From IMG/VR virus record IMGVR_UViG_2548876935_000016: 11,998 nucleotides of DNA. One strand, written 5' to 3'. A program made the translations under genes and the position numbers. This DNA comes from a virus (lineage: Duplodnaviria; Heunggongvirae; Uroviricota; Caudoviricetes). The notes under the pieces were generated by a model, which saw nothing but the letters and a program-made list of their open reading frames with translations, was not told where the DNA came from and made no database searches. Within the stretch, counting starts at the first letter, position 1, and the number at the start of each line of letters is the position of its first letter. Shown here one piece after another: positions 935 through 11,998 of the stretch.

Positions 935-2620
935 GTGAATATAAACGTCGCCGAATTGTTAAATGGGAATTACATTCTGTTATTATTTGTGGTCCTCGCG
1001 CTTGGGCTATGTCTCGGAAAGTTACGACTTGGTTCGATCCAACTGGGTAATTCCATTGGCGTTTTGGTCGTATCACTGTTATTAGGCCAACAACATTTCA
1101 GCATTAACACCGACGCGCTTAATCTTGGCTTTATGCTGTTTATTTTCTGCGTCGGGGTCGAAGCCGGACCGAACTTTTTTTCCATTTTTTTTCGCGATGG
1201 GAAAAATTACCTAATGTTAGCACTGGTGATGGTTGGCAGTGCGCTGGTGATCGCCTTAGGGTTAGGTAAGCTGTTTGGCTGGGATATTGGCCTGACGGCC
1301 GGTATGTTAGCAGGCTCTATGACGTCGACACCGGTTCTGGTCGGTGCTGGCGATACACTGCGTCATTCCGGCATGGAAAGCAGGCAGCTCTCACTGGCAC
1401 TGGATAATCTGAGCCTCGGGTATGCCTTAACCTATTTAATCGGTCTGGTGAGTTTGATTGTTGGTGCGCGTTACTTGCCGAAATTGCAGCATCAGGACTT
1501 ACAGACCAGCGCCCAGCAAATCGCCCGCGAACGTGGCCTGGACACTGATGCCAACCGTAAGGTTTATTTACCGGTGATCCGCGCCTATCGCGTCGGCCCG
1601 GAGCTGGTGGCCTGGACCGACGGCAAAAATCTGCGTGAACTGGGTATTTATCGACAAACCGGCTGCTACATTGAACGTATTCGACGTAACGGGATTCTGG
1701 CAAATCCAGACGGTGATGCCGTGCTACAAATGGGCGATGAAATAGCGTTGGTAGGCTATCCCGACGCCCATGCCCGACTCGATCCCAGCTTCCGTAACGG
1801 TAAAGAAGTTTTCGATCGTGACCTTCTCGACATGCGTATCGTCACTGAAGAAGTGGTCGTTAAAAACCATAACGCTGTAGGTAAACGTCTCGCACAACTG
1901 AAGTTGACCGATCACGGTTGCTTCCTTAACCGCGTCATTCGTAGCCAGATTGAGATGCCGATAGATGACAACGTCGTGCTTAACAAAGGTGACGTTTTAC
2001 AAGTCAGCGGTGATGCCCGTCGCGTAAAAACCATCGCCGATCGCATCGGCTTTATCTCGATTCACAGCCAGGTCACTGACCTGCTGGCATTTTGCGCCTT
2101 CTTTGTTATTGGGCTGATGATCGGGATGATCACCTTCCAGTTCAGCACATTCAGTTTCGGCATGGGGAACGCTGCCGGGTTGTTATTCGCCGGAATTATG
2201 CTGGGCTTTATGCGTGCTAACCACCCGACCTTCGGTTACATTCCGCAAGGTGCATTAAGCATGGTGAAAGAGTTCGGCTTGATGGTGTTTATGGCAGGCG
2301 TTGGTCTGAGCGCCGGTAGCGGTATTAATAACGGCCTGGGCGCGATTGGCGGTCAGATGTTGATTGCCGGATTAATTGTCAGTCTTGTGCCCGTGGTTAT
2401 CTGTTTCTTGTTCGGTGCTTATGTATTGCGAATGAACCGCGCACTGTTGTTCGGCGCAATGATGGGCGCACGCACCTGCGCGCCGGCAATGGAGATCATC
2501 AGTGATACAGCTCGCAGTAACATCCCTGCGCTGGGCTATGCGGGCACCTACGCAATCGCCAACGTCCTGCTGACGCTGGCAGGGACAATCATCGTCATGG
2601 TATGGCCAGGATTAGGATAA
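935..2620 (+). CDS. ybjL: Putative transporter YbjL (AAE / aspartate:alanine exchanger family, two membrane domains with central cytoplasmic domain)
   Basis: 561-aa ORF with hydrophobic N- and C-terminal halves around a soluble central region. Starts at GTG 935 ([16 protein letters not shown]...). Matches E. coli YbjL in length and sequence from memory, and in synteny. Confidence 0.93.
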
Positions 2621-2732
2621 AACTGAAGTTGCCCTGAAAATGAAATTTTTTTGCACAACCGCAGAACTTTTCCGCAGGGCATCAGTCTTAATTAGTGCCA
2701 CTGCTTTTCTTTGATGTCCCCATTTTGTGGAG

Positions 2733-2775
2733 CCCATCAACCCCGCCATTTCGGTTCAAGGTTGATGGGTTTTTT
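2733..2775 (+). terminator. Rho-independent terminator-like hairpin downstream of ybjL
   Basis: Perfect 10-bp inverted repeat cccatcaacc (2733-2742) / ggttgatggg (2760-2769) with a 17-nt loop, immediately followed by tttttt (2770-2775). Confidence 0.6.
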
Positions 2776-2855
2776 GTTGTCTGAAATTTATGCCTTTTAA
2801 AATCATGATGTTAGAAGCACTGCTTTTTAACGATGGCGACAAAATGGCGGCAGCG

Positions 2856-3074
2856 TCAAAGAGAGAGCGCCACCTGTCCTGATTTCATTGGATGCGGCTG
2901 AACCGGATTTGACTCTTTTGGCGTTGCAATCGAACGAACAAAAGTTTCATGGGTAACAAAAGTATGGCTGCAGTTAATGTTCTGGCACTGGTTGTAACGC
3001 TCTTTGGTCAATGAAGATACCTGAAAACTGCTGCGAGTATGGGCGGCACTTCCACACAGTGGGCAAATCATCAT
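2856..3074 (-). CDS. ogr: Ogr-family zinc-finger late-gene transcriptional activator
   Basis: 72-aa product MMICPLCGSAAHTRSS...KERYNQCQNINCSHTF with the CxxC...CxxxxC zinc-finger arrangement characteristic of P2 Ogr / P4 Delta. The track ORF starts at 3107, but a GGGGAGA Shine-Dalgarno sits 8 nt upstream of the ATG at 3074, which gives the 72-aa length I recall for P2 Ogr. Position immediately after D at the prophage end matches P2 gene order. Confidence 0.85.
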   Translation of the reverse strand: MMICPLCGSAAHTRSSFQVSSLTKERYNQCQNINCSHTFVTHETFVRSIATPKESNPVQPHPMKSGQVALSL

Positions 3075-3164
3075 TTTTCGAGTTCTCCCCATTTTTGCTA
3101 AATTCACAATAATGATACCGCATTATTCCATTTTGCAAACTTAAAAGTTCTCCATTGCGAAGAA

Positions 3165-4265
3165 TCATTCCATTTCGAAATCATCAATCCTCACTTCAAG
3201 CTCCAGACTGGTTGTAAAACCGTTATCCGGGCTGACGGTATGTGTCAGAGTCGTAATGGTCCATTCCGCATCATCTATCGGCTGTTTAAAACCACTGACC
3301 TTCACAGGCATTTCCGTGTAGAGATCTGCCCGCCCTTCCGCCAGTTGTAGCGAGAATGACGCAACGCCACGTTGCAGGCGTTCCCACTGCATTTTCGCTG
3401 CCCGTTCAGCGTTGCTCCGGTTGGCATAAGTGCGATTAAGTACCAGCACGTTTTCATCCGTCCCCACCAGGTAATCGCCCTGCTTCGCTTCCGGCTCTTT
3501 CTTCTGCTTCTTAGTCCTGCGCTTACGCTTCACCGTAGTGCTTTCTTTCTTCGCGGGTTCGCGGGTATGCAACCAGCTGGCAATTACCCCCGTGTAAGCT
3601 CCGCGATCTGCCAGGGTAAAGCGGTGACTGTCGCCGTCCTTACGTGTGATAGTAATCACCGGCAGTGGTTTACCGCTGGCGCTTTTGCCCTGTCCCTGCC
3701 GGATGAATAACAGATTGCCATTTTTCACCGATGCAATGGCACCGTACTGGCGCGCCAGCCGCATCAAAAAACTGCCGTCACTCTCATTAGTCTGGTCTAT
3801 ATGCTCCACGGGCTTATCCGACAGGTCTTTACCCAGTGCCATCTTCAGCTTGTGCCGCGCGGCTATTTCCTTCACCACTTCCCCGATGGTGGTGTTATGC
3901 CACGATTTTTCACGGCGGGTATTCAGCGTTTCCCGAAAATCAGCACTTCGCGCCCGGATAGTCAGGCGGTCCGGTGCGCCAGTGTGTTCAATCTCGTCTA
4001 CCGTGAATGCCCCTTTCGGGAAAAGCGGCTGCCCCTTCCAGCCCAGCGCCAGCGTAATGACCGCACCACGGCGCGGCAGCACGATTTTTCCGTCGGCGTC
4101 GTCCAGCTCCAGATCAAGCTGGTCCGCTTCAAAGCCCCGATTGTCCGTCAGCGTCAGACTCATCAGGCGGTTATCCAGCACAGTGGTGATATCCTTCCCC
4201 TCAATACTGATGCTGAATGCGGGAGTTTTGTTTCCTTTGTTAAGCAGTTCAGAGCTGAAATTCAC
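3165..4265 (-). CDS. D: Tail protein D (late control gene D family)
   Basis: 366-aa ORF with gpD-like motifs (LTLTDNRGFEADQLDLELDD...). Apparent GTG start at 4265 overlaps the U stop (GTGA), suggesting translational coupling. Position between U and ogr matches P2. Confidence 0.9.
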   Translation of the reverse strand: MNFSSELLNKGNKTPAFSISIEGKDITTVLDNRLMSLTLTDNRGFEADQLDLELDDADGKIVLPRRGAVITLALGWKGQPLFPKGAFTVDEIEHTGAPDRLTIRARSADFRETLNTRREKSWHNTTIGEVVKEIAARHKLKMALGKDLSDKPVEHIDQTNESDGSFLMRLARQYGAIASVKNGNLLFIRQGQGKSASGKPLPVITITRKDGDSHRFTLADRGAYTGVIASWLHTREPAKKESTTVKRKRRTKKQKKEPEAKQGDYLVGTDENVLVLNRTYANRSNAERAAKMQWERLQRGVASFSLQLAEGRADLYTEMPVKVSGFKQPIDDAEWTITTLTHTVSPDNGFTTSLELEVRIDDFEME

Positions 4266-4747
4266 GACAGCAGCCCTCCCACCGTTTTACTGATATCGCT
4301 TAAGGCAGACGTTGCCGTGTCCTGCAGATTATTCAGTTGAGTACTGAGATCACCGAACATATCGGACAGGGATTCATCCACCCGTTTTAGCGAAAGGGTG
4401 AACTCAATCCTGCGCGGCATACCGTCGCGGAAAAACTCCGTTTTAGTCTGATTCAGTCCCTCAATCACATACATGCCGTAAATCGTGCCGCTGCCTTCAA
4501 TCAGGGGCCATGCTTTCCCCTGTTCTGCCATCTGCTCCAGTGCCAGCAACGACAGCCTGCCGCCTGTTATCTCCGGCATAAGAACACCGGAAAGCGTCAG
4601 CATGTCGTTTTCCGGTCCCAGAAACTGCGTGGACGGACGACGGTTTACCCGGCTGTTTGCCGCATGTCGCCAGCTGCGTTGATACTGCAGTTCCTGATAC
4701 GGAACGGTGCGCAGCATAAACACGTACAATCCCAGCACCATCATCAT
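4262..4747 (-). CDS. U: Tail protein U (tail terminator-like)
   Basis: 161-aa ORF beginning MMMVLGLYVF... Its ATG overlaps the T stop codon (ATGA at 4744-4747). Size and order match P2 gpU. Confidence 0.9.
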   Translation of the reverse strand: MMMVLGLYVFMLRTVPYQELQYQRSWRHAANSRVNRRPSTQFLGPENDMLTLSGVLMPEITGGRLSLLALEQMAEQGKAWPLIEGSGTIYGMYVIEGLNQTKTEFFRDGMPRRIEFTLSLKRVDESLSDMFGDLSTQLNNLQDTATSALSDISKTVGGLLS

Positions 4748-7700
4748 GCGTCGTATCCCCCCTGATCGCTGTAGTTACTCCTGGCTTTTGCCTTCAGCCT
4801 GCGTTCACGTTCATCAAGCTGGCGTGCCACCTCCCGCGCAATATCCTGCGCACTTTGTCCTGGCTGCGTCTGAATGATGATCTGCGTCGGTGCCTCAATC
4901 CGTTGAACGAGCGGCACAGTGGCTGCGCGACTCACAATTGCTTCTCCACCTTTCGCGGGAAGTGCCAAAGGGTGCAACGGTGGAAGCTCTGCTGGCGCGG
5001 CAGCAACGCCCATCATTCCGGCAACAACGGCAGCCAGTGCAGCTGTATTTCTCCGGCTGGTCACATTTGCCGGGCCGTTAACAATTTCCGGCCCGTTTTC
5101 ACCGACGATGCCAAACTGCCCGCGCGGGATATAGCCGCCGCTGTCATACATCCCCGCAAAGCCATATCCCCATGACGGAAAACCACCCGATGGCATCATC
5201 ACTTTACCGTCTGCATTCACCGTCGCAGGTTGCTGACGCGTCACGCTTTCCGGCAGTTTCGCCTTTGCAGCCTCTTTACTGACAATGCCGAGTTTATCCA
5301 GCAACCACGACACACCTGATTTAAGCGACTCAAGCGGGTGCATCACCATATTCAGACCTTCTGCCAGCGCCTCACCAAATCTACGGCCCATTGCAGCTGC
5401 GCTGTTCAGTTCCTCAGAAGTCGATTTAACTGGCGAAAGTAAATCAGTGAACCAGCCCCACAATGCCTGCACCTTGTCGCCAATCCACTGGAAAACCGGC
5501 CGCAGTGGTTCAAATGCAGCACTGATCGGGCCAGCAGCCGCTTTAAAGCCTTCAACCACACCACCCAGAAAAGCGCTGATGGGCTGCCAGTATTTCCAGA
5601 CAACCAGCGCCACGCCTGCCAGTGCAGCCACAACCAGACCTATCGGACTGAGCAATACCCCAAGCACGCTGCCAACGCCCACCAGAGCTGCACGCAACAA
5701 CGCAAACGGTGACATGACGAGCCATCTAATCACACCCCCAGCCCCCCTTACCGAAGTAACCAACGGTGCAAAGGCAGCACTTGCCAGCCCGCGAATTTTC
5801 GTACCAAGCAGGCGGACCGCTTCGCCGGGGTTAAGAAAAGAAGACACCAGAGTTTCACCCGCCTGCCGGGCATGTTCTTTGATTTTATCCAGCGCCCCGT
5901 CGCGGAACGCATCCAGGATACCGCCACCGTCATCATCCCCGCCGCCGCTGAGTGCCTCTCGGATACGACTTATCCAGTTAACTGTCTCGCCCGCTTCATT
6001 TCCCGAAAACAGCCCGAATAGTTTTTTCAGTGCATCGCCGGACTGGAACAAACCGGGTGCAAATGAAGTGAACGCCTGGCCCAGGCGCCCCAGCAACGGA
6101 CTGAGCCTGCCAAGACCGGTGAGTGCCAGCGTTTTCATTCCAAAACGCAGCAGGGCGAGCGGCCCCAGAATGGCCGCCATCGCAATCGCCAGGGTGCCCA
6201 GCGCAAGCGTAACCGAAGCCACCACAGCGGCAATCTTCATCAACCGGCCCGCCAGTTCCGGATTAGCTTCCACCCAGCGGCGCATTACTCCCGTCACGCG
6301 CCTTACCGCTTCCATGATTTCCATCAGCGGAGCACGCAGCGTTTCACCCAGGCTGCTGAACGTATTGGTAACCCCGGTTTTCACCAGCAACCACTGAGCA
6401 GAAAGTGAGTCTTTGTTGATGTCGGATTCTTTCTGCATGGAACCGAGCGCATCATTGCCCGCTGTCAGTTTTAGCTGGCGCTGCAGTTCCGGAAGGTTGT
6501 TTGCCAGTTTCGCCGCGTCATCACCAAACTCTTTACCAAACAACATGGTCATGGCAGACAGACGCTTGTCCTGCGGCAGTGCGTTCACCTTCTCCAGCAC
6601 ACGCTGGATAGTTCCCATCGCATCCTTCGTCATCTGCTTTTCAATCACTTCAGGATTGAGTTTCAGCAGATTCATCCCTTCAAAGAAACTCTTGCTTTGC
6701 ATGGTGGCAATGGATAATTCACGCACCATCGCGTTTGCTGCACTGGCTGCAACCTCCGGCGCAGCGCCCAGTGTCAGAAAGGTGGAACCCAGTGCCGCCG
6801 CTTTACGATAATCCAGACGGTCAGCCACACCGCCCAGACGTTGCATCACATCAATGATGTCCGCCCCTTTCGACATGGCGTTATCATCCAGATAGTTCAG
6901 CGCATCGCCGAGCTGTTCAATATTGCGGGTAGGTATTTTGTAGAGCTGGGCGATTTTCCCCAGACTTTCTGACAGTTCATCCGCTGGCAGCTCAAAGGCT
7001 GTTGCCGCCTTTGCTGCCGTACTGGCGAAGGCCAGCAGGTCACGTTTCTGGTCTTCCCAGCTGTCGTCAGGGTTTGCGACGTTCATGCGCGCACCACCTT
7101 CAACCAGTGCAGCGAAATCCACCGCACCGTTTTCCATCGGCAACTGTTCGCTGGCAGCCTTGATGGCATCCTGCATTTCATAAAAACGTGCAGTGCGGTT
7201 GCCATTATCGTCACGCAGACCATTGACCTGCTTTGCCACACCTTTCATGGCATCTTCCATGCTGGTATAGCTTTTTACTGCCGCCATCACTGGTGCGCCC
7301 ATTGCCAGCCCTGCAGCCGTGGTGGTGGCTCCGGCACCTGCAATCCGATCCCTTACTTCAAGACGCCTGGCGTAAGCCCCTCGGGCGGCGTGCATTTTTC
7401 GCTGTTGCTCCCCGACACGTCGTAACCTCGCTTCCTGCTCAGAAAGCTGCCTGTTATAACGCATCGTTTCACGGGTAATGCGGGCCGTCGCACTGGCACC
7501 ATCATTAGCTGAAATACCAGCACGATAAAGTTCTGCACGCACAAGCGCCGTCTGCTGCTGCAGCTTTTTCTGGCGTTCTTCCAGGCGCTGAACAGCCAGC
7601 CGTTGACGGCCCAGAGCAACAACCTGACGTTGCGAAGGCGGCCCCATCGCTCCCAGTTCCTGACTGAGCAAATTTGCACGCTGGCGGGCATAGCTCAGCC

Positions 7701-7917
7701 TGTCGCCTAATTTCTGATTTTCTGCCTGCAGCTTTCGGAAGCTGTCCAGACTGCTCCCGGCCTGATCAAGCTGCTTTATTGCATCGCGGGATTTTTTGAC
7801 AGCAGCAGCCAGTTCTCTTGAACTGGCCTGCGCAGATCGAAATGGGCGGGTGAGCTTGTCAACCGCATTAAGAATGACCTGCAGACGCAGGTTATTGTCA
7901 CTCATGGCTGGCCCCAC
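4744..7917 (-). CDS. T: Tail tape measure protein
   Basis: 1057-aa ORF with an N-terminal coiled-coil-like charged region, Gly/Ala-rich hydrophobic central segments and a C-terminal region, typical of tape measure proteins, in the expected position between E/E' and U. The track start at 7917 is GTG; an in-frame ATG at 7905 overlaps the predicted E' stop and is an equally plausible true start. Confidence 0.9.
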   Translation of the reverse strand: MGPAMSDNNLRLQVILNAVDKLTRPFRSAQASSRELAAAVKKSRDAIKQLDQAGSSLDSFRKLQAENQKLGDRLSYARQRANLLSQELGAMGPPSQRQVVALGRQRLAVQRLEERQKKLQQQTALVRAELYRAGISANDGASATARITRETMRYNRQLSEQEARLRRVGEQQRKMHAARGAYARRLEVRDRIAGAGATTTAAGLAMGAPVMAAVKSYTSMEDAMKGVAKQVNGLRDDNGNRTARFYEMQDAIKAASEQLPMENGAVDFAALVEGGARMNVANPDDSWEDQKRDLLAFASTAAKAATAFELPADELSESLGKIAQLYKIPTRNIEQLGDALNYLDDNAMSKGADIIDVMQRLGGVADRLDYRKAAALGSTFLTLGAAPEVAASAANAMVRELSIATMQSKSFFEGMNLLKLNPEVIEKQMTKDAMGTIQRVLEKVNALPQDKRLSAMTMLFGKEFGDDAAKLANNLPELQRQLKLTAGNDALGSMQKESDINKDSLSAQWLLVKTGVTNTFSSLGETLRAPLMEIMEAVRRVTGVMRRWVEANPELAGRLMKIAAVVASVTLALGTLAIAMAAILGPLALLRFGMKTLALTGLGRLSPLLGRLGQAFTSFAPGLFQSGDALKKLFGLFSGNEAGETVNWISRIREALSGGGDDDGGGILDAFRDGALDKIKEHARQAGETLVSSFLNPGEAVRLLGTKIRGLASAAFAPLVTSVRGAGGVIRWLVMSPFALLRAALVGVGSVLGVLLSPIGLVVAALAGVALVVWKYWQPISAFLGGVVEGFKAAAGPISAAFEPLRPVFQWIGDKVQALWGWFTDLLSPVKSTSEELNSAAAMGRRFGEALAEGLNMVMHPLESLKSGVSWLLDKLGIVSKEAAKAKLPESVTRQQPATVNADGKVMMPSGGFPSWGYGFAGMYDSGGYIPRGQFGIVGENGPEIVNGPANVTSRRNTAALAAVVAGMMGVAAAPAELPPLHPLALPAKGGEAIVSRAATVPLVQRIEAPTQIIIQTQPGQSAQDIAREVARQLDERERRLKAKARSNYSDQGGYDA

Positions 7918-8334
7918 TTCTCTGAATCGCTTTATACCGCCATTCCAGCACTTCGGTCAGCGGCATAACGTCAGTAACGGATGGCGGCCAGTGAAAAATG
8001 GTGGCGATATCTGCCACCAGATCGTCAACCGTCAGGCTGTCGGTAAACCGGCAAGCACCGACTTCTTCAACAAAAAAGTGACAACCTCAACCGACATGGT
8101 TGTGAGATCTGCCGGGTCCATCTCTGCGATTTCCTGTGCAGTCAGTGCCGGACTGGAGATGCGGGGGATCACGGTCATCATCGCGTTCACATCCATATCC
8201 ATAATGGCCTGCAGGCGTGTGCCGCGCAGCGCACCGGACTGCGGTTTACGCAACACAATTTCGGTAATTTCTGTTTTACCGCGCATGATGGGGGTATCCA
8301 GTTGAATGGTCTTTTCAGTCTGTTTATCGCTCAT
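7898..8334 (-). CDS. E': Tail assembly chaperone E+E' (product of programmed -1 ribosomal frameshift)
   Basis: Hand translation: after a -1 slip on T TTT TTG (plus-strand 8071-8077, read on the minus strand) the -1 frame stays open for 57 codons (VEEVGACRFTDSLTVDDLVADIATIFHWPPSVTDVMPLTEVLEWRYKAIQRSGASHE) and stops at TGA 7900-7898, overlapping the T ATG at 7905. Predicted about 145 aa, close to the roughly 142 aa I recall for P2 E+E'. Confidence 0.6.
8032..8334 (-). CDS. E: Tail assembly chaperone E
   Basis: 100-aa ORF directly upstream of T and downstream of FII. Carries a TTTTTTG slippery heptamer 13 codons before its stop, as expected for the E/E' pair. Confidence 0.85.
   Translation of the reverse strand: MSDKQTEKTIQLDTPIMRGKTEITEIVLRKPQSGALRGTRLQAIMDMDVNAMMTVIPRISSPALTAQEIAEMDPADLTTMSVEVVTFLLKKSVLAGLPTA
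8071..8077 (-). other. Slippery heptamer T TTT TTG for the E/E' -1 frameshift
   Basis: Minus-strand sequence gtc ACT TTT TTG ttg in the E frame; heptamer of X XXY YYZ form located 13 codons before the E stop. Confidence 0.6.
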
Positions 8335-8388
8335 TTTGTTGTCCTGTCAATTGGGTTCTGGCGCGGTATCCCGCGCCGTTCAGATATA

Positions 8389-8904
8389 TCAGAGGCCGAG
8401 GGCGTTGCGGTGCGCTTCCATCAGGTCCACACCGTCCACAATTTCCACCATGTTGATAAGGTCCACTTCATAGAGCACCTCACCATTGATGGTCAGCTTC
8501 GCGTAGCTGTTGGTACTGGTCACTTTGGTGGTGTTGCTTTCGCCCGTCTTCCACTCGCCGGAATCCACTTCTTTGTGACGTCCACGCACGACAAGCTCCA
8601 CGGCCTGCACTTCCCCGGTATCGTCACGCTGGATAGAGCCGGTAAAGCGCAGCTGGATGCCATCCACCGTGGATTTGCCCATCTGCTTAAACAGCAGCAG
8701 TTCAGTACCACCAATGGAAAATTCTGTATCCAGTGCACTGTCATCCAGTCCCAGATCCACATCCACTGCACCCGGCATTCCGCCGCCGCGATACTTCTCA
8801 TATTTGCGGGTAAATTTCGGCAGCGTCAGCGACTCAACGATCCCCTGCCAGTTGTTCCCGTCGTTAAACAGGTTCAGGTGTTTTAATTTGCGTGGTAAAG
8901 CCAT
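8389..8904 (-). CDS. FII: Major tail tube protein
   Basis: 171-aa ORF immediately downstream of the sheath gene; size and order match P2 FII. Confidence 0.9.
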   Translation of the reverse strand: MALPRKLKHLNLFNDGNNWQGIVESLTLPKFTRKYEKYRGGGMPGAVDVDLGLDDSALDTEFSIGGTELLLFKQMGKSTVDGIQLRFTGSIQRDDTGEVQAVELVVRGRHKEVDSGEWKTGESNTTKVTSTNSYAKLTINGEVLYEVDLINMVEIVDGVDLMEAHRNALGL

Positions 8905-8913
8905 GTTGTCCCC

Positions 8914-10086
8914 TTACGCGCTGACCTGGCTGGCGAAATTCACCAGGTACTGATCGGTGATGCGCTGACGCAGCATCAGGTTTTCAAGTGGCGGCACTGG
9001 CGTGTAGTCGTAGTCGATGGTGAGTTTTCCGGCTTTCAGCGTGTCTTTGTCGTTCACCGACTCATCCAGCCAGCAATCACCACCAATGAGATAGCCCTGA
9101 CTGACCAGGCTGCGCATTTTGGCGCGGATACCTTCGATAATGTCGCGGGCCAGCGACGGGTTAAGCGTTTTATCCACCGCCCACATGTGTGCTTCTGCCA
9201 TCGTGTCCATCAGCACCTGCGCCGTGCGGGTGTAGTTTTCGAAGGCAAAGAGCGGGTCATCACTCAGGCAGCGGGAACCCCAGAAGCGGAAACCGTCTTT
9301 ACGCACAAGCGTGGTGACGTCGTTCTGGTTCAGCAGACCTGCATCGGTTGCCGGGTCCTGCAGATCCCAGAACACATCTGCAGAAATTCCGGTGACACCG
9401 TTCACGCCCACGTTGGACAGGCTTTTGTGCCATCCGGTCTGCTCGTCAATTTTGGCGCGCAGACCAAGCGCACGGGCGGTGGCATATGCCGTTGCTTCGG
9501 CATTCAGCACCGTGTCCCAGCCAGTAAAGTCAGGCCAGATCAGCATCCCTTCGCGCTGGCTGAAGTTTTCGCGGTAAGTGATCGCCTCCTGCACTGTCTT
9601 GCAGCCATACGCTGACAGGTAAGCAAATCCACGCAGGCTTTGCGCCACGCTCAGCAACTCAGTAGCTACCGCCTTGGTGTCGTGGCCTGGCACGCCGAGA
9701 ATGCGCGGTTTAACGCCGAGCTGTGACTGGGCAGATAACAGGGCTTTCATACCTGTTTTTTTACCTTCAGCAGTCACTGCGCCGATGATATTGGTCGTGG
9801 TTTCGTCTTCCGTTTCACCCTGCGGCACACGCACAACAATGGTCACGGGTTTTGCCTGGTCAGCGATGGCATCCAGCGAACGGGCCAGAGTACCGGACTC
9901 ACCCGCTTTACCGCTGGCAGTCAGCACATCAGTGATCAGCACGGGTTTATTAAGAGGAAACATTTTTGCATCGGCATCATCGCCCGTGCAGACCATACCC
10001 ACGATGGCGGTGCTCACCGTGGTAATAGATCGGGTGCCTTCGTTGACTTCAACAACGCGCACCCCGTGGTGGTAATCCTGAGCCAT
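8914..10086 (-). CDS. FI: Contractile tail sheath protein
   Basis: 390-aa ORF, first gene of the FI-FII-E-T-U-D operon, with AGGAGG 9 nt upstream of the ATG. Sequence family and size match P2 FI. Confidence 0.92.
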
Positions 10087-10162
10087 AGTGGCGAACCTCC
10101 TGATTGGATTAGGCTTCGCCCTATGTTGAAGTGATTGTGCCTGACAAACAGCTAAGCGCAGT

Positions 10163-10180
10163 TGTGTCGTTATTCACACA
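10163..10180 (-). promoter_or_regulatory. Candidate Ogr-dependent late promoter element (TGT-N12-ACA dyad) for the FI operon
   Basis: TGTGTCGTTATTCACACA fits the TGT-N12-ACA dyad I recall for P2/P4 late promoters, and the outer TTGTGT / ACACAA arms are perfect inverted repeats. The dyad centre is about 85 bp upstream of the FI ATG, consistent with a -55 activator site plus a short leader. No strong -35 is visible, as expected for an activator-dependent promoter. Confidence 0.5.
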
Positions 10181-10228
10181 AAATAACGGTATTTGTCTGC
10201 TTGCAGGGATAATCAACATAATGCTGAT

Positions 10229-10795
10229 TCAGGGGGATTCATTGATCTTATTTGCCGGAAATTTTCTATAAATGGTAGAAACGCCTACATCAAAAATCAG
10301 TGCAATACGCTGTCTTGATTCTCCGGCCTCGAGTAAACGCCCAATCTGTGCCCACTGTTCGGTGGTCAACTTAGGACGGCGTCCACCTACTCTGCCTTTG
10401 GTACGAGCTGCAGCCAGCCCTGCCCTGGTACGTTCAACTATCAGTTCGCGTTCCATTTCAGCCAGGGCACCCATGACATGAAAAAAGAAACGGCCCATTG
10501 GGGTACTGGTATCAATACTGTCAGTCAGGCTTCTGAAATTCACACCACGCTGGCGCAACTCTTCTATCAGCGTAACAAGATGCCGCATACTGCGCCCCAA
10601 CCTGTCCAGCTTCCAGACAACCAGCGTGTCTCCTGCCGATAGTATCCTGAGCAGTTTTTTCAGCCCCGGTCTGTCGGACTTAGTGCCACTGATTTTATCC
10701 TCAAAAATCCGCTCACATCCCGCGCAGTTCAGCGCATTGCGTTGCAAATCGGTGTTCTGGTCATTTGTTGACACGCGTACATAGCCAATAAGCAT
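10229..10795 (-). CDS. Serine site-specific DNA invertase (Gin/Cin/Pin/Hin family)
   Basis: 188-aa product MLIGYVRVSTNDQNTDLQRNAL... with the catalytic-serine N-terminal motif and a C-terminal helix-turn-helix, closely resembling Mu Gin as I recall it. The track start at 10801 gives MTM...; the ATG at 10795 has AAGGAGA at good spacing and matches the family N-terminus. Confidence 0.9.
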   Translation of the reverse strand: MLIGYVRVSTNDQNTDLQRNALNCAGCERIFEDKISGTKSDRPGLKKLLRILSAGDTLVVWKLDRLGRSMRHLVTLIEELRQRGVNFRSLTDSIDTSTPMGRFFFHVMGALAEMERELIVERTRAGLAAARTKGRVGGRRPKLTTEQWAQIGRLLEAGESRQRIALIFDVGVSTIYRKFPANKINESP

Positions 10796-10822
10796 GGTCA
10801 TCTCCTTGAATAAAAATCGGGG

Positions 10823-11317
10823 ATGATGCCAGTTAGTCGTAATCGCTGCATTTTCTTAAACGTTGGTTTGGGAGAAGGTGCTCCAGCTATTGGCGTTCCG
10901 TTCTTCTGGCCGTCCGCCGCAATGCCAAATACTGTAATCGACAGTTGGTCCAGTATGGTGTTTTTGAAGTTCAACGGCGCGAAATTCTCTGCCACTGATT
11001 ACCCTGTGCTGGCGAAAGTGTTTCCGGCGCTAGCATTACCTGACGCACGCGGTGAATTCCCACGCATCTGGGATGACGGGCGCGGTGTGGATGCTGGACG
11101 CACGTTATTAAGCTTTCAAAGTGACGACTTTAAGGCCCACGGTCATAACTTCGAATCCTGGCCCGACAGCGGCAATCCGGCATCAAAAGGGGGGGCTGTA
11201 GATGCTCGCGGCGGTAATGGAAATAGATACATCACATCGGGTGTGGTCAAGGAAACGGGAGGCACCGAAACCCGACCAAGAAACATAGCATTCAACTTTT
11301 TAGTAAGGGCGAAATAA
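10823..11317 (+). CDS. Tail fibre variable C-terminal cassette (Mu S / P1 S / Stf-like variable part), currently detached from its constant N-terminal part
   Basis: Open frame ending ...GGTETRPRNIAFNFLVRAK, with the LPDARGEFPRIWDDGRGVDAGR motif typical of invertible tail-fibre C-termini. There is no upstream tail-fibre body on this strand, the frame crosses the crossover site, and its stop overlaps the downstream tfa start (TAATG). The ATG at 10823 is probably not a real start. Confidence 0.75.
   Translation: MMPVSRNRCIFLNVGLGEGAPAIGVPFFWPSAAMPNTVIDSWSSMVFLKFNGAKFSATDYPVLAKVFPALALPDARGEFPRIWDDGRGVDAGRTLLSFQSDDFKAHGHNFESWPDSGNPASKGGAVDARGGNGNRYITSGVVKETGGTETRPRNIAFNFLVRAK
10851..10876. other. 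gix/cix/hix-like 26-bp inversion crossover site (left boundary of invertible tail-fibre segment)
   Basis: TTTTCTTAAACG-TT-GGTTTGGGAGAA: two imperfect inverted 12-bp half-sites around a 2-bp core, matching the TTnTCnnAAACC half-site pattern of Gin/Cin/Hin recombination sites. It lies about 55 bp from the invertase start and inside the tail-fibre reading frame, as gix lies inside Mu S. Confidence 0.6.
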
Positions 11318-11910
11318 TGACACCTGTTTTTGATGAAAATGGACTGGCTACAGTGCCTGGTGATATGCGTTGTTTTTATTATAATGCAGTAACGTATGAA
11401 TATATGGGCTGGTCTGATGAATATATTAATACTGGTGTAAGTATGCCCGCCTGCTCCACTGGTATTGACCCTGGCGAATACATTCCGGGAAGAGTGGCAG
11501 TATTTACGGGTAAGGGATGGAGCCATGAAGAAGACCATCGCAATGAGACCGTTTACTCAACTGAAAATGGCGCAGCTGTTACAGTGGATTATATCGGTGC
11601 CATCAAAGACGGTTATGTCACGCTTTCACCGTTAACGCCATACGATAAATGGGATGGTGAGAAATGGGTGACGGATACCGAGGCACAGCATAGCGCCGCA
11701 GTAGAAGCGGCAGAAGCACAGCGCCAGTCGCTGATTGATGCTGCAATGGCTTCCATCAGTCTGATTCAACTGAAATTACAGGCTGGGCGGAAGCTGACGC
11801 AGCCAGAAAACACCCGACTTAACGCTGTGCTGGATTACATTGACGCGGTGACGGCAACAGATACCAGCACAGCGCCGGACGTCATCTGGCCTGAACTGCC
11901 GGAGGCGTAG
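11317..11910 (+). CDS. Tail fibre assembly protein (Tfa / Mu U / P2 G family)
   Basis: 197-aa ORF translationally coupled to the fibre cassette. C-terminus ...TAPDVIWPELPEA resembles the conserved Tfa C-terminal motif. Confidence 0.88.
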   Translation: MTPVFDENGLATVPGDMRCFYYNAVTYEYMGWSDEYINTGVSMPACSTGIDPGEYIPGRVAVFTGKGWSHEEDHRNETVYSTENGAAVTVDYIGAIKDGYVTLSPLTPYDKWDGEKWVTDTEAQHSAAVEAAEAQRQSLIDAAMASISLIQLKLQAGRKLTQPENTRLNAVLDYIDAVTATDTSTAPDVIWPELPEA

Positions 11911-11998
11911 GCCATTCAATATCTGGCGCACCGGAAGTATCGACCAGTTCCAGTGCGTCCAGATAATCCAGCCACAAATTATATTGCGCCAGTTCCTC
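11882..11998 (-). CDS. Alternative tail fibre assembly protein (Tfa'), 3' end only; 5' part beyond window
   Basis: Hand translation of the minus strand gives ...EELAQYNLWLDYLDALELVDTSGAPDIEWPTPPAVQAR followed by TGA (11884-11882). It shares the ...APD(I/V)xWP..P C-terminal motif with the plus-strand Tfa, and the two genes converge with 3' ends overlapping by about 29 nt. Confidence 0.75.
   Translation of the reverse strand, partial: EELAQYNLWLDYLDALELVDTSGAPDIEWPTPPAVQAR

Follow-up and report, generated by a model that had tools for sequence, protein, structure and literature searches.

The question raised by this locus is whether an invertase gene that lies next to tail-fibre genes, at the very end of a contig, belongs to a switch by which a prophage exchanges the tip of its tail fibre. 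An earlier note, made from the sequence, had read positions 10,229 to 11,998 as the complete architecture of a Mu G-segment-like host-range switch in a P2-like prophage. The stretch that was analysed (11,998 nt, hereafter the window; its source contig, L005, is identical to it) ends where the contig ends and holds the switch only in part. The sequence past 11998 was taken from a longer contig of 20.6 kb (L003), which is 100% identical to window positions 1317-11998. From the combined material we conclude that the region is very probably one half, the one on the side of the invertase, of a Pin-type DNA-inversion switch with two states that acts on the tail fibre of an E. coli P2-like prophage. 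All elements of the claimed architecture exist, but about half of it lies past the contig end, in L003. The features within the window are listed in Table 1.

Table 1. Features of the switch within the window (positions of the window; basis of the assignment in the last column)
Feature	Position	Strand	Basis and details
DNA invertase, Pin/Gin/Cin/Hin-type small serine recombinase, 188 aa (likely start)	10229..10795	-	Pfam, PHROG, structure match, identity to PinE/Gin
Putative recombinational enhancer at the invertase 5' end	10711..10774		two Fis-like 15-mers
55-bp spacer, invertase start to crossover site	10796..10850		read from sequence
Invertase-proximal 26-bp crossover site, TTTTCTTAAACG-TT-GGTTTGGGAGAA	10851..10876		core TT 10863-10864; pix/gix-type
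Alternative C-terminal tail-fibre cassette, collar-type tip, predicted silent	10877..11317	+	PHROG, in-frame fusion
tfaA, tail-fibre assembly chaperone of the predicted silent cassette, 197 aa	11317..11910	+	Caudo_TAP, PHROG 105
tfaB, last 39 codons, convergent, cut by the window/contig end	11882..11998	-	translation

The prophage was classed as P2-like, a member of the Peduoviridae, by a set and order of genes (ogr, D, U, T, E/E', FII, FI ... H, I, J, W, V, S, R, lysis, L, M, N, O). The P2-type tail and late genes were found in that order by Pfam matches in the window, the gene tables of L003 and of a related sequence (L001) and comparison with the P2 record, and as far as its sequence extends, L003 lacks none of the P2-type genes for tail, lysis and head. 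The prophage is integrated at a place that adjoins ybjL/rybB; a tRNA scan recovered no tRNA genes in the window, and the integration site is thus not a tRNA gene. The switch module occupies the Z/fun slot of P2.

The minus-strand reading frame 10229-10801 encodes the expected Gin/Cin/Pin-type serine invertase. Its product contains the Pfam domains Resolvase (1.2e-52) and HTH_7 (1.4e-15), belongs to PHROG 125 ('DNA invertase', 1.3e-99), matches the Mu Gin structures 3uj3/4m6f over residues 1-184 (E 1e-92) and is 84% identical to PinE of e14 and 73% to Gin of Mu. With NCBIfam, the matches of the invertase all fell below the cut-off and the fibre and chaperone proteins were without any match. The start codon is likely the second ATG, giving a protein that begins with MLIGYVRVS; this start was preferred because relatives are annotated that way. 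Within this N-terminus Ser9 is the predicted nucleophile, and it aligns column for column with S9 of Gin. In 3uj3 the crystallised Gin has A at the S9 position. The reading frame is intact and all catalytic and Fis-contact residues are present. The residues for Fis activation are Q150/R153/L154 and K46/K47/R50 in the translated protein, where the numbering is one below that of Hin; Hin Q151/R154/L155 and the basic residues at 47/48/51 are reported to be uniquely conserved in the invertases that are activated by Fis and an enhancer (PMC3798978).

Two Fis-like 15-mers (G-N13-C), at gene positions 22-36 and 71-85, lie in the first part of the invertase gene; they overlap the coding sequence and together mark a putative Fis-bound enhancer. 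Measured to the middle of the crossover site, the proximal 15-mer is ~96 bp away, and pinE of e14 and gin of Mu have 15-mers of the same form at the very same gene positions. In the Hin system the proximal Fis site is spaced by ~100 bp and the spacer is AT-rich (PMC3798978), and the present locus agrees in both respects. The enhancer region is also conserved coding sequence, and the conservation of the 15-mers by itself is therefore no proof of Fis binding. The promoter of the invertase gene is presumably located in the 55-bp spacer, which also holds the ATG (10823) of the reading frame of the adjoining cassette. A scan of 10050-11998 with the sigma-70 consensus gave no promoter match in this spacer, and with the sigma-70 and terminator consensus together the number of sites in that interval was no higher than in shuffled sequences.

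A 26-bp site adjoining the invertase gene and lying within a tail-fibre reading frame had been proposed, and both were recovered: the site falls inside the reading frame 10823-11317, the product of which matches tail-fibre PHROGs (1.3e-54). The site is real, but its best register, with 12-bp imperfect inverted half-sites flanking a 2-bp core (12+2+12), lies 2 bp to the left of the one implied by a cassette that starts at 10877. It is the sole match to the invertase-site pattern in the window; the chance expectation for the exact 26-mer with ≤ 3 mismatches is 0.00, and as positive controls the pattern also recovers the annotated pix sites of e14 and the boundaries of the Mu G segment. An inverted second site to the right, which had been set as one test of the proposal, was found outside the window, inside gene H (L003 11372-11397). 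The two sites read TTCTCCCAAACC-AA-... on opposite strands, with an identical core and an exact inner stretch of 15 bp in common, and they are conserved in the relatives L001, L002 and L011. They bound an invertible segment of 1839 bp core to core (L003 9547-11385), one site being 55 bp upstream of the invertase gene and the other at about codon 350 of H. A shufflon with more than two sites and states, like Min of p15B, would have a precedent in the same phage type, since another E. coli P2-like prophage, from an enteropathogenic strain (EPEC), has a version with three repeats and four variants (PMC4272514). For the present locus we regard such an arrangement as next to negligible in probability: L003 has exactly two sites over its 20.6 kb, a third being found neither with the degenerate 26-bp pattern (≤ 4 mismatches) nor with the 15-bp inner half (≤ 3), and its gene table lists only two sets of cassette and tfa between the invertase and H.

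These two sets are the substance of the switch. The plus-strand set has the coordinates that had been claimed for it. Its cassette matches PHROG 523 ('tail collar fiber protein', 1.3e-54) and has a weak Pfam Collar match (3e-4, below the curated cut-off); it contributes 146 variable residues when fused to H. TfaA is recognised by Pfam Caudo_TAP (2.2e-27) and PHROG 105 (5.8e-83). The second set, said to converge on the first, does exist, but within the window it consists only of the last 39 codons of tfaB, which overlap tfaA by 29 bp and translate as EELAQYNLWLDYLDALELVDTSGAPDIEWPTPPAVQAR*. This end is the C-terminus of a 146-aa Caudo_TAP protein (L003 10566-11006). The minus-strand cassette and the constant region that had been predicted past 11998 are all present in L003, which continues with the remainder of tfaB, a tip of the Gp53-like_C family, the inverted partner site within H and the constant region of H (Phage_tail_fib). 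Each tip is followed by its own Caudo_TAP chaperone gene, one set per strand and the sets converging, with the invertase gene just outside the segment, as in the invertible tail-fibre segments of Mu (G), P1 (C) and e14 (P). The two tips differ in fold or family, one being Gp53-like_C and the other collar-type. Inversion of the segment in silico keeps H in frame both ways, giving proteins of 466 aa and 500 aa with a common N-terminus of 354 residues, the longer of which ends in the collar-type tip. The collar-type cassette is promoterless. It abuts the invertase rather than H, for which reason it is, judging by its position, the unexpressed copy in the sequenced orientation, as the earlier note had held.

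Both orientations, the other point on which the proposal was to stand or fall, occur in nature, as seen at the level of assemblies and genomes. In a further contig (L004) the segment is flipped between flanks that are 100% identical to those of L003 over 9.2 kb, and its junction falls within 10863-10877. In several assemblies the segment occurs as a stand-alone contig of 1839 bp with its ends exactly at both core dinucleotides. Two of these contigs, L006 and L007 (runs SRR12769927 and SRR28200614), start exactly at 10863, and the former was found in 10 samples; half of the contigs read that carry this tfa (7/14) are shorter than 2 kb. Among complete E. coli genomes the junction of the invertase with the collar-type cassette was found in 231 and that with the Gp53-like cassette in 107. 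One complete genome (L011) is in the flipped state and has an annotated collar-type H of 518 aa. The source contig passes unbroken through the proximal site, which fits one dominant orientation in the source culture.

That L005 and L003 both assemble unbroken through this site could also be read as the sign of a frozen relic, in which the module was inherited and inversion was lost, leaving a fixed arrangement with a plus-strand cassette that is never expressed, and decay of this kind is common among prophage modules. We consider this highly unlikely, as the invertase reading frame is intact with all its catalytic and Fis-contact residues, both sites are intact with an identical core, L004 has the opposite orientation between identical flanks, and core-to-core contigs were found in several samples. 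The orientations and short contigs might, alternatively, have arisen without the invertase, whether related prophages recombined by homology, the genome holds the segment twice or the assemblies contain artefacts; up to 11 similar places in E. coli genomes make contig breaks induced by repeats possible. This origin is very improbable too: the breakpoints lie exactly at the 2-bp cores of both 26-bp sites, whereas the common repeat is merely 15 bp, the flanks of L003 and L004 are identical over the full 9.2 kb, and both types of junction are found in finished genomes. Inversion by the invertase remains the preferred reading, and it agrees with the work on P2-like prophages of EPEC, in which inversion was demonstrated by sequencing and PCR (PMC4272514), and with the frequent observation, in the Z/fun hotspot of P2, of invertases with inversion of adjacent genes (bioRxiv 10.1101/2024.10.15.618418).

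By analogy with the family, the switch would work as follows: i) invertase dimers would bind both 26-bp sites, and Fis of the host would bind the enhancer at the 5' end of the invertase gene; ii) in the resulting synaptic tetramer Ser9 would cut at the common AA/TT core, followed by rotation over 180 degrees and religation; iii) in the sequenced orientation H would consist of the 354-aa constant part and a 112-aa Gp53-like tip, with the 146-aa TfaB co-transcribed with H from the late operon, while the collar-type tip and the 197-aa TfaA would face away from H and be silent; and iv) after inversion H would be the 500-aa protein with the collar-type tip, made together with TfaA. Since inversion swaps the tip of H, a lysogen culture would release the two fibre types as a mixture. 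The dependence on Fis, the cleavage chemistry and the switching rate would be those expected for an invertase of this family, and the two tips may bind different receptors.

Whichever cassette faces the invertase gains an in-frame ATG (10823) from the flank on that side, and the same is true in e14. From this ATG a tip-only reading frame of 164 aa (or 129 aa) runs, followed by its tfa. It is conceivable, though we think it quite unlikely, that the cassette facing the invertase is not fully silent or, relatedly, that the invertase acts in trans on other Pin-type segments of the same genome. If the lysogen transcribed the tip-only frame from the promoter region of the invertase, in the direction opposite to that gene, a free receptor-binding fragment would be made; if the invertase acted in trans, the states of several prophages would be coupled.

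The switch as such is already known: it is an ordinary, textbook host-range switch of the Hin/Gin/Cin/Pin type, and inversion in E. coli P2-like prophages has been published (PMC4272514). Dozens of complete genomes of E. coli hold this very prophage, module included. Per E. coli genome, up to 11 places are similar to this region. For such lysogens the inversion switch explains assembly breaks at the locus or an orphan contig of 1.8 kb, and likewise the contig end that limits the window. It also explains the labels that pipelines attach to the silent cassette ('phage tail protein' and even a partial 'integrase' pseudogene), and it means that a single assembly predicts just one of the two fibre types open to the prophage.

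Phage P2 (H-G-Z/fun-FI) has the order of the tail genes and their proteins in common with the present prophage (FI, FII, E/E', T, U, D, ogr), as well as a late-promoter dyad upstream of FI, and its H is 53% identical to the constant part of H. As the earlier note had correctly said and the P2 record confirms, P2 has a single fixed H-G pair; the place of its Z/fun gene is taken, in the present prophage, by the invertase and the second cassette. H of P2 contains a single gix-like sequence (4 mismatches to the pattern), without a partner. An origin of the cassettes from P2 was rejected after the G chaperone and the H tip of P2 had been compared with the window cassette, as the relatedness is limited to the constant part of H and the match of G to TfaA is weak (E 0.006). 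The G segment of Mu (S-U / U'-S'; Gin) is the same kind of switch, with the invertase gene just outside the segment, 26-bp sites within the fibre gene and two convergent sets of tip and chaperone. Mu, however, is a transposable phage and its segment is ~3 kb with U and U' not overlapping, against 1.8 kb with overlapping tfa genes here, and the half-sites of its gix differ (TTCCTGTAAACC../..GGTTTTGGATAA). The loci described for the P2-like prophages of EPEC E2348/69 (Goldberg et al. 2014, PMC4272514), likened here by description, are in the same type of phage, occupy the same slot, with the fibre genes on one side and FI on the other, and use the same mechanism of an invertase and inverted repeats; their variants were found experimentally to coexist in culture (PMC4272514), and the locus with three repeats and four variants contrasts with the two sites and two variants of the present one.

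The closest relative, rather than the G segment of Mu that the module had been likened to, is the Pin/P segment of e14 in E. coli K-12 (ycfK/stfP-tfaP-tfaE-stfE-pinE), which matches the present module part for part. The pix site proximal to pinE agrees with the proximal site at 25/26 bases; in the distal sites the inner half and the AA core are the same. From the site to the start of the invertase there are 54 bp in e14 and 55 bp in the present prophage, core to core the segment measures 1829 bp (1.83 kb) and 1839 bp, respectively, and each has convergent tfa genes with an overlap of 29 bp. The identities are 63% for TfaA with TfaE, 60% for TfaB with TfaP, 44% for the collar-type cassette with StfE and 34% for the Gp53-like tip with the C-terminus of StfP; the tips have diverged. 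Finally, e14 is a defective lambdoid element with a truncated fibre gene, whereas the present prophage carries a full-length P2-type H with the Phage_tail_fib N-terminus.

The crossover site beside the invertase gene falls within an ORF (10823-11317) that represents the C-terminal region of a tail fibre (PHROG 523 match, 1.3e-54; 44% identity of the product to StfE of e14). The earlier note had described an invertase, a site and fibre/tfa sets; this description was accurate, except that the register of the site was shifted by 2 bp and that the second fibre cassette lies outside the window. A scan of the 12-kb window with a degenerate invertase-site pattern, TTNTCNNAAACCNNGGTTTNNGANAA (≤ 4 substitutions), returned this site as its single match, and as controls the same pattern recovered exactly the two pix sites of the e14 P segment and the two annotated G-segment boundaries in Mu. 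Shuffled windows yielded ~0.1 matches each at ≤ 4 substitutions, the real sites have one mismatch, and the chance expectation for the exact 26-mer with ≤ 3 mismatches was 0.00. Read on the opposite strand, the window site matches the pinE-proximal pix at 25 of 26 bases.

Features of the prophage right arm and the inversion module (window positions unless stated otherwise)
Feature	Position	Strand	Remarks
ybjL	935-2620	+	Asp-Al_Ex domain
RybB sRNA gene, full-length	2700-2778	+	Rfam RF00110, 105 bits, E 2e-21
ogr	prophage right arm	-	P2-type gene
D	3165-4265	-	P2-type gene
U	4262-4747	-	P2-type gene
T (tape measure)	4744-7917	-	P2-type gene
E	listed between T and FII	-	P2-type gene
FII	8389-8904	-	P2-type gene
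FI (sheath)	8914-10086	-	P2-type gene
Small serine recombinase ORF (invertase)	10229-10801	-	Resolvase 1.2e-52, HTH_7 1.4e-15
Invertase-proximal crossover site	10851-10876		TTTTCTTAAACG-TT-GGTTTGGGAGAA; 55 bp upstream of invertase start
tfaA	11317-11910	+	Caudo_TAP 2.2e-27; 63% identical to TfaE
tfaB (last 39 codons only)	11882-11998	-	convergent with tfaA, 29-bp overlap
Partner crossover site	L003 11372-11397	inverted relative to first site	TTCTCCCAAACC-AA-GGTATGTGAGAA; inside H, same AA/TT core

An exact look-up of the TfaA protein led to contigs that match the window at 100% identity. The source contig (AIAQ01000259.1) terminates exactly at the window end, so that the window stops where the contig does. 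A longer contig, L003 (DAJWUM010000001.1), is identical over window positions 1317-11998 and continues with tfaB (146 aa), followed by the fibre gene H, by I, J, W and V, and by the remaining P2-type late genes. Its H product (466 aa) combines a Phage_tail_fib N-terminus with a Gp53-like_C tip, and both the inverted second site and the fibre constant region that had been anticipated to the right of 11998 were found inside this gene. The two sites have an exact 15-bp inner stretch in common, and no third site was found across the 20.6 kb of L003. In-silico inversion from core to core preserved the reading frame and turned the 466-aa H into one of 500 aa; the first 354 residues are common to both forms and end in ...LLTYLGLGE, which is encoded by the crossover site. 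The plus-strand cassette is indeed the silent copy, as had been proposed, because the window cassette has no fibre constant part upstream.

The proposal that both orientations exist was borne out as well. A different assembly, L004, is 100% identical to L003 over a flank of 9.2 kb (ybjL to invertase) and carries the segment reversed, with the Gp53-like cassette adjoining the invertase. Two stand-alone contigs of 1839 bp (one of them found in 10 samples) correspond to L003 9547-11385, extending from one core dinucleotide to the other, and outside the cores the two junction types diverge from the very next base. Given the behaviour of graph assemblers, a segment contig that ends exactly at the cores would imply that both junction types occurred in the reads; the 15-bp repeat alone would be insufficient for a break in the assembly, because it is below the usual k-mer length. 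Half of the contigs with this tfa that were read (7 of 14) are shorter than 2 kb. Among finished E. coli genomes (query coverage ≥ 80%), the junction of the invertase to the collar cassette was found in 231 and that to the Gp53-like cassette in 107; one finished genome with a related prophage is in the flipped state and encodes a collar-type H of 518 aa. At the sequence level the evidence thus indicates that this very element occurs in both states: the observation is confirmed and its interpretation as an invertible switch is supported.

The invertase start annotated in relatives is the second ATG (10795), which is preceded by AAGGAG and gives a protein of 188 aa with the N-terminus MLIGYVRVS. 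Sequences of Mu Gin crystal structures match residues 1-184 (E 1e-92), and the identity is 84% to e14 PinE and 73% to Gin. In Hin, Q151/R154/L155 and the basic residues 47/48/51 are listed as specific to the Fis/enhancer-dependent subclass (PMC3798978); the counterparts Q150/R153/L154 and K46/K47/R50 are all present here, and by homology the enzyme is probably of this type. Two Fis-like 15-mers, at which Fis would be expected to bind, occupy positions 22-36 and 71-85 of the gene, precisely the same places as in gin and pinE. Of the two, the proximal 15-mer lies ~96 bp from the centre of the crossover site, a spacing that agrees with the ~100 bp quoted for Hin (PMC3798978). As in other members of the family, whose mechanism is established, Ser9 would attack the 2-bp core, the subunits would rotate and the DNA would be religated, and, judging from gene order, H and the downstream tfa would be expressed from the P2 late operon.

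Several further properties of the segment were noted. The invertase-side flank (10823-10850) provides an in-frame ATG to whichever cassette adjoins it, yielding ORFs of 164 aa in the window and 129 aa in the flipped L004 (the e14 analogue is the stfE pseudo-ORF), which annotation pipelines label 'phage tail protein', 'gp53-like domain-containing protein' or, in the related prophage L002, a partial 'integrase' pseudogene. An 18-nt imperfect inverted repeat (11829-11846 and 11955-11972) is built from conserved C-terminal codons (LDYIDA, LDYLDA) of the two tfa genes, which converge and overlap; the source contig ends 26 bp past this repeat (11998), not at a crossover site. The G+C content drops to 42-50% in parts of the segment (L003 9800-11450; window ~11100-11998 and beyond), compared with 55-58% in the sheath and H-constant/I genes on either side, which is consistent with horizontal exchange of the module between unrelated phages of the e14-like lambdoid and the P2-like kind.

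The window opens with grxA/ybjM-like ORFs and ybjL (99.6% identity to E. coli CE0021a), followed by the right arm of the P2-like prophage, and complete E. coli genomes carry this prophage in an identical chromosomal position, at ~96% identity. Since rybB is located between the ybjL stop codon and ogr, and no tRNA gene was found in the window, the prophage ends beside, or integrates at, rybB and not a tRNA gene. Within T, a stretch at ~5654-6155 has no megablast match to the related prophages L001 and L002, which elsewhere are ~96% identical, and the annotated tape-measure product measures 1053 aa in L003, whereas that of L001 has 1025 aa (3078 nt). A variable or recombined block within T is suggested by these differences.

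P2 itself has a single fixed H-G pair, as the earlier note held and the P2 record agrees, and carries Z/fun in the slot that is taken here by the module and is flanked by the fibre chaperone gene and the late promoter of FI. A TGT-N12-ACA dyad, TGTGTCGTTATTCACACA (10163-10180), lies between the invertase stop and FI, and its centre is ~85 bp upstream of the start of FI. This position matches that of the activator-binding site annotated for the late promoter pF of P2, which in the P2 record is ~83 bp from the ATG of FI. The invertase and silent cassette thus form an insertion exactly between pF and the fibre genes, in the Z/fun slot. P2 H also contains a lone gix-like sequence, TTCCTGTAAACCGAGATATTCGATAA (858-883 of the P2 record; 23 of 26 bases match Mu gix), at the YLGL position that forms the constant/variable junction. 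This sequence has no partner, P2 lacks an invertase, and its H does not invert; the sequence may have been left over from an ancestral switch. The e14 P segment is a part-for-part counterpart of the module, alike in its invertase, both sites, 54/55-bp spacer, segment length (~1.83 kb) and 29-bp tfa overlap, and with homologous tips and chaperones, whereas the G segment of Mu (3 kb) is more distant. In P2-like prophages of EPEC, sequencing and PCR have demonstrated phase variation by inversion, in two-variant and four-variant forms (PMC4272514), and the P2 Z/fun hotspot is noted as a frequent location of invertases together with inversion of neighbouring genes (bioRxiv 10.1101/2024.10.15.618418). 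The feature is a switch of an already known type, its location is known as well, and it is widespread in E. coli.
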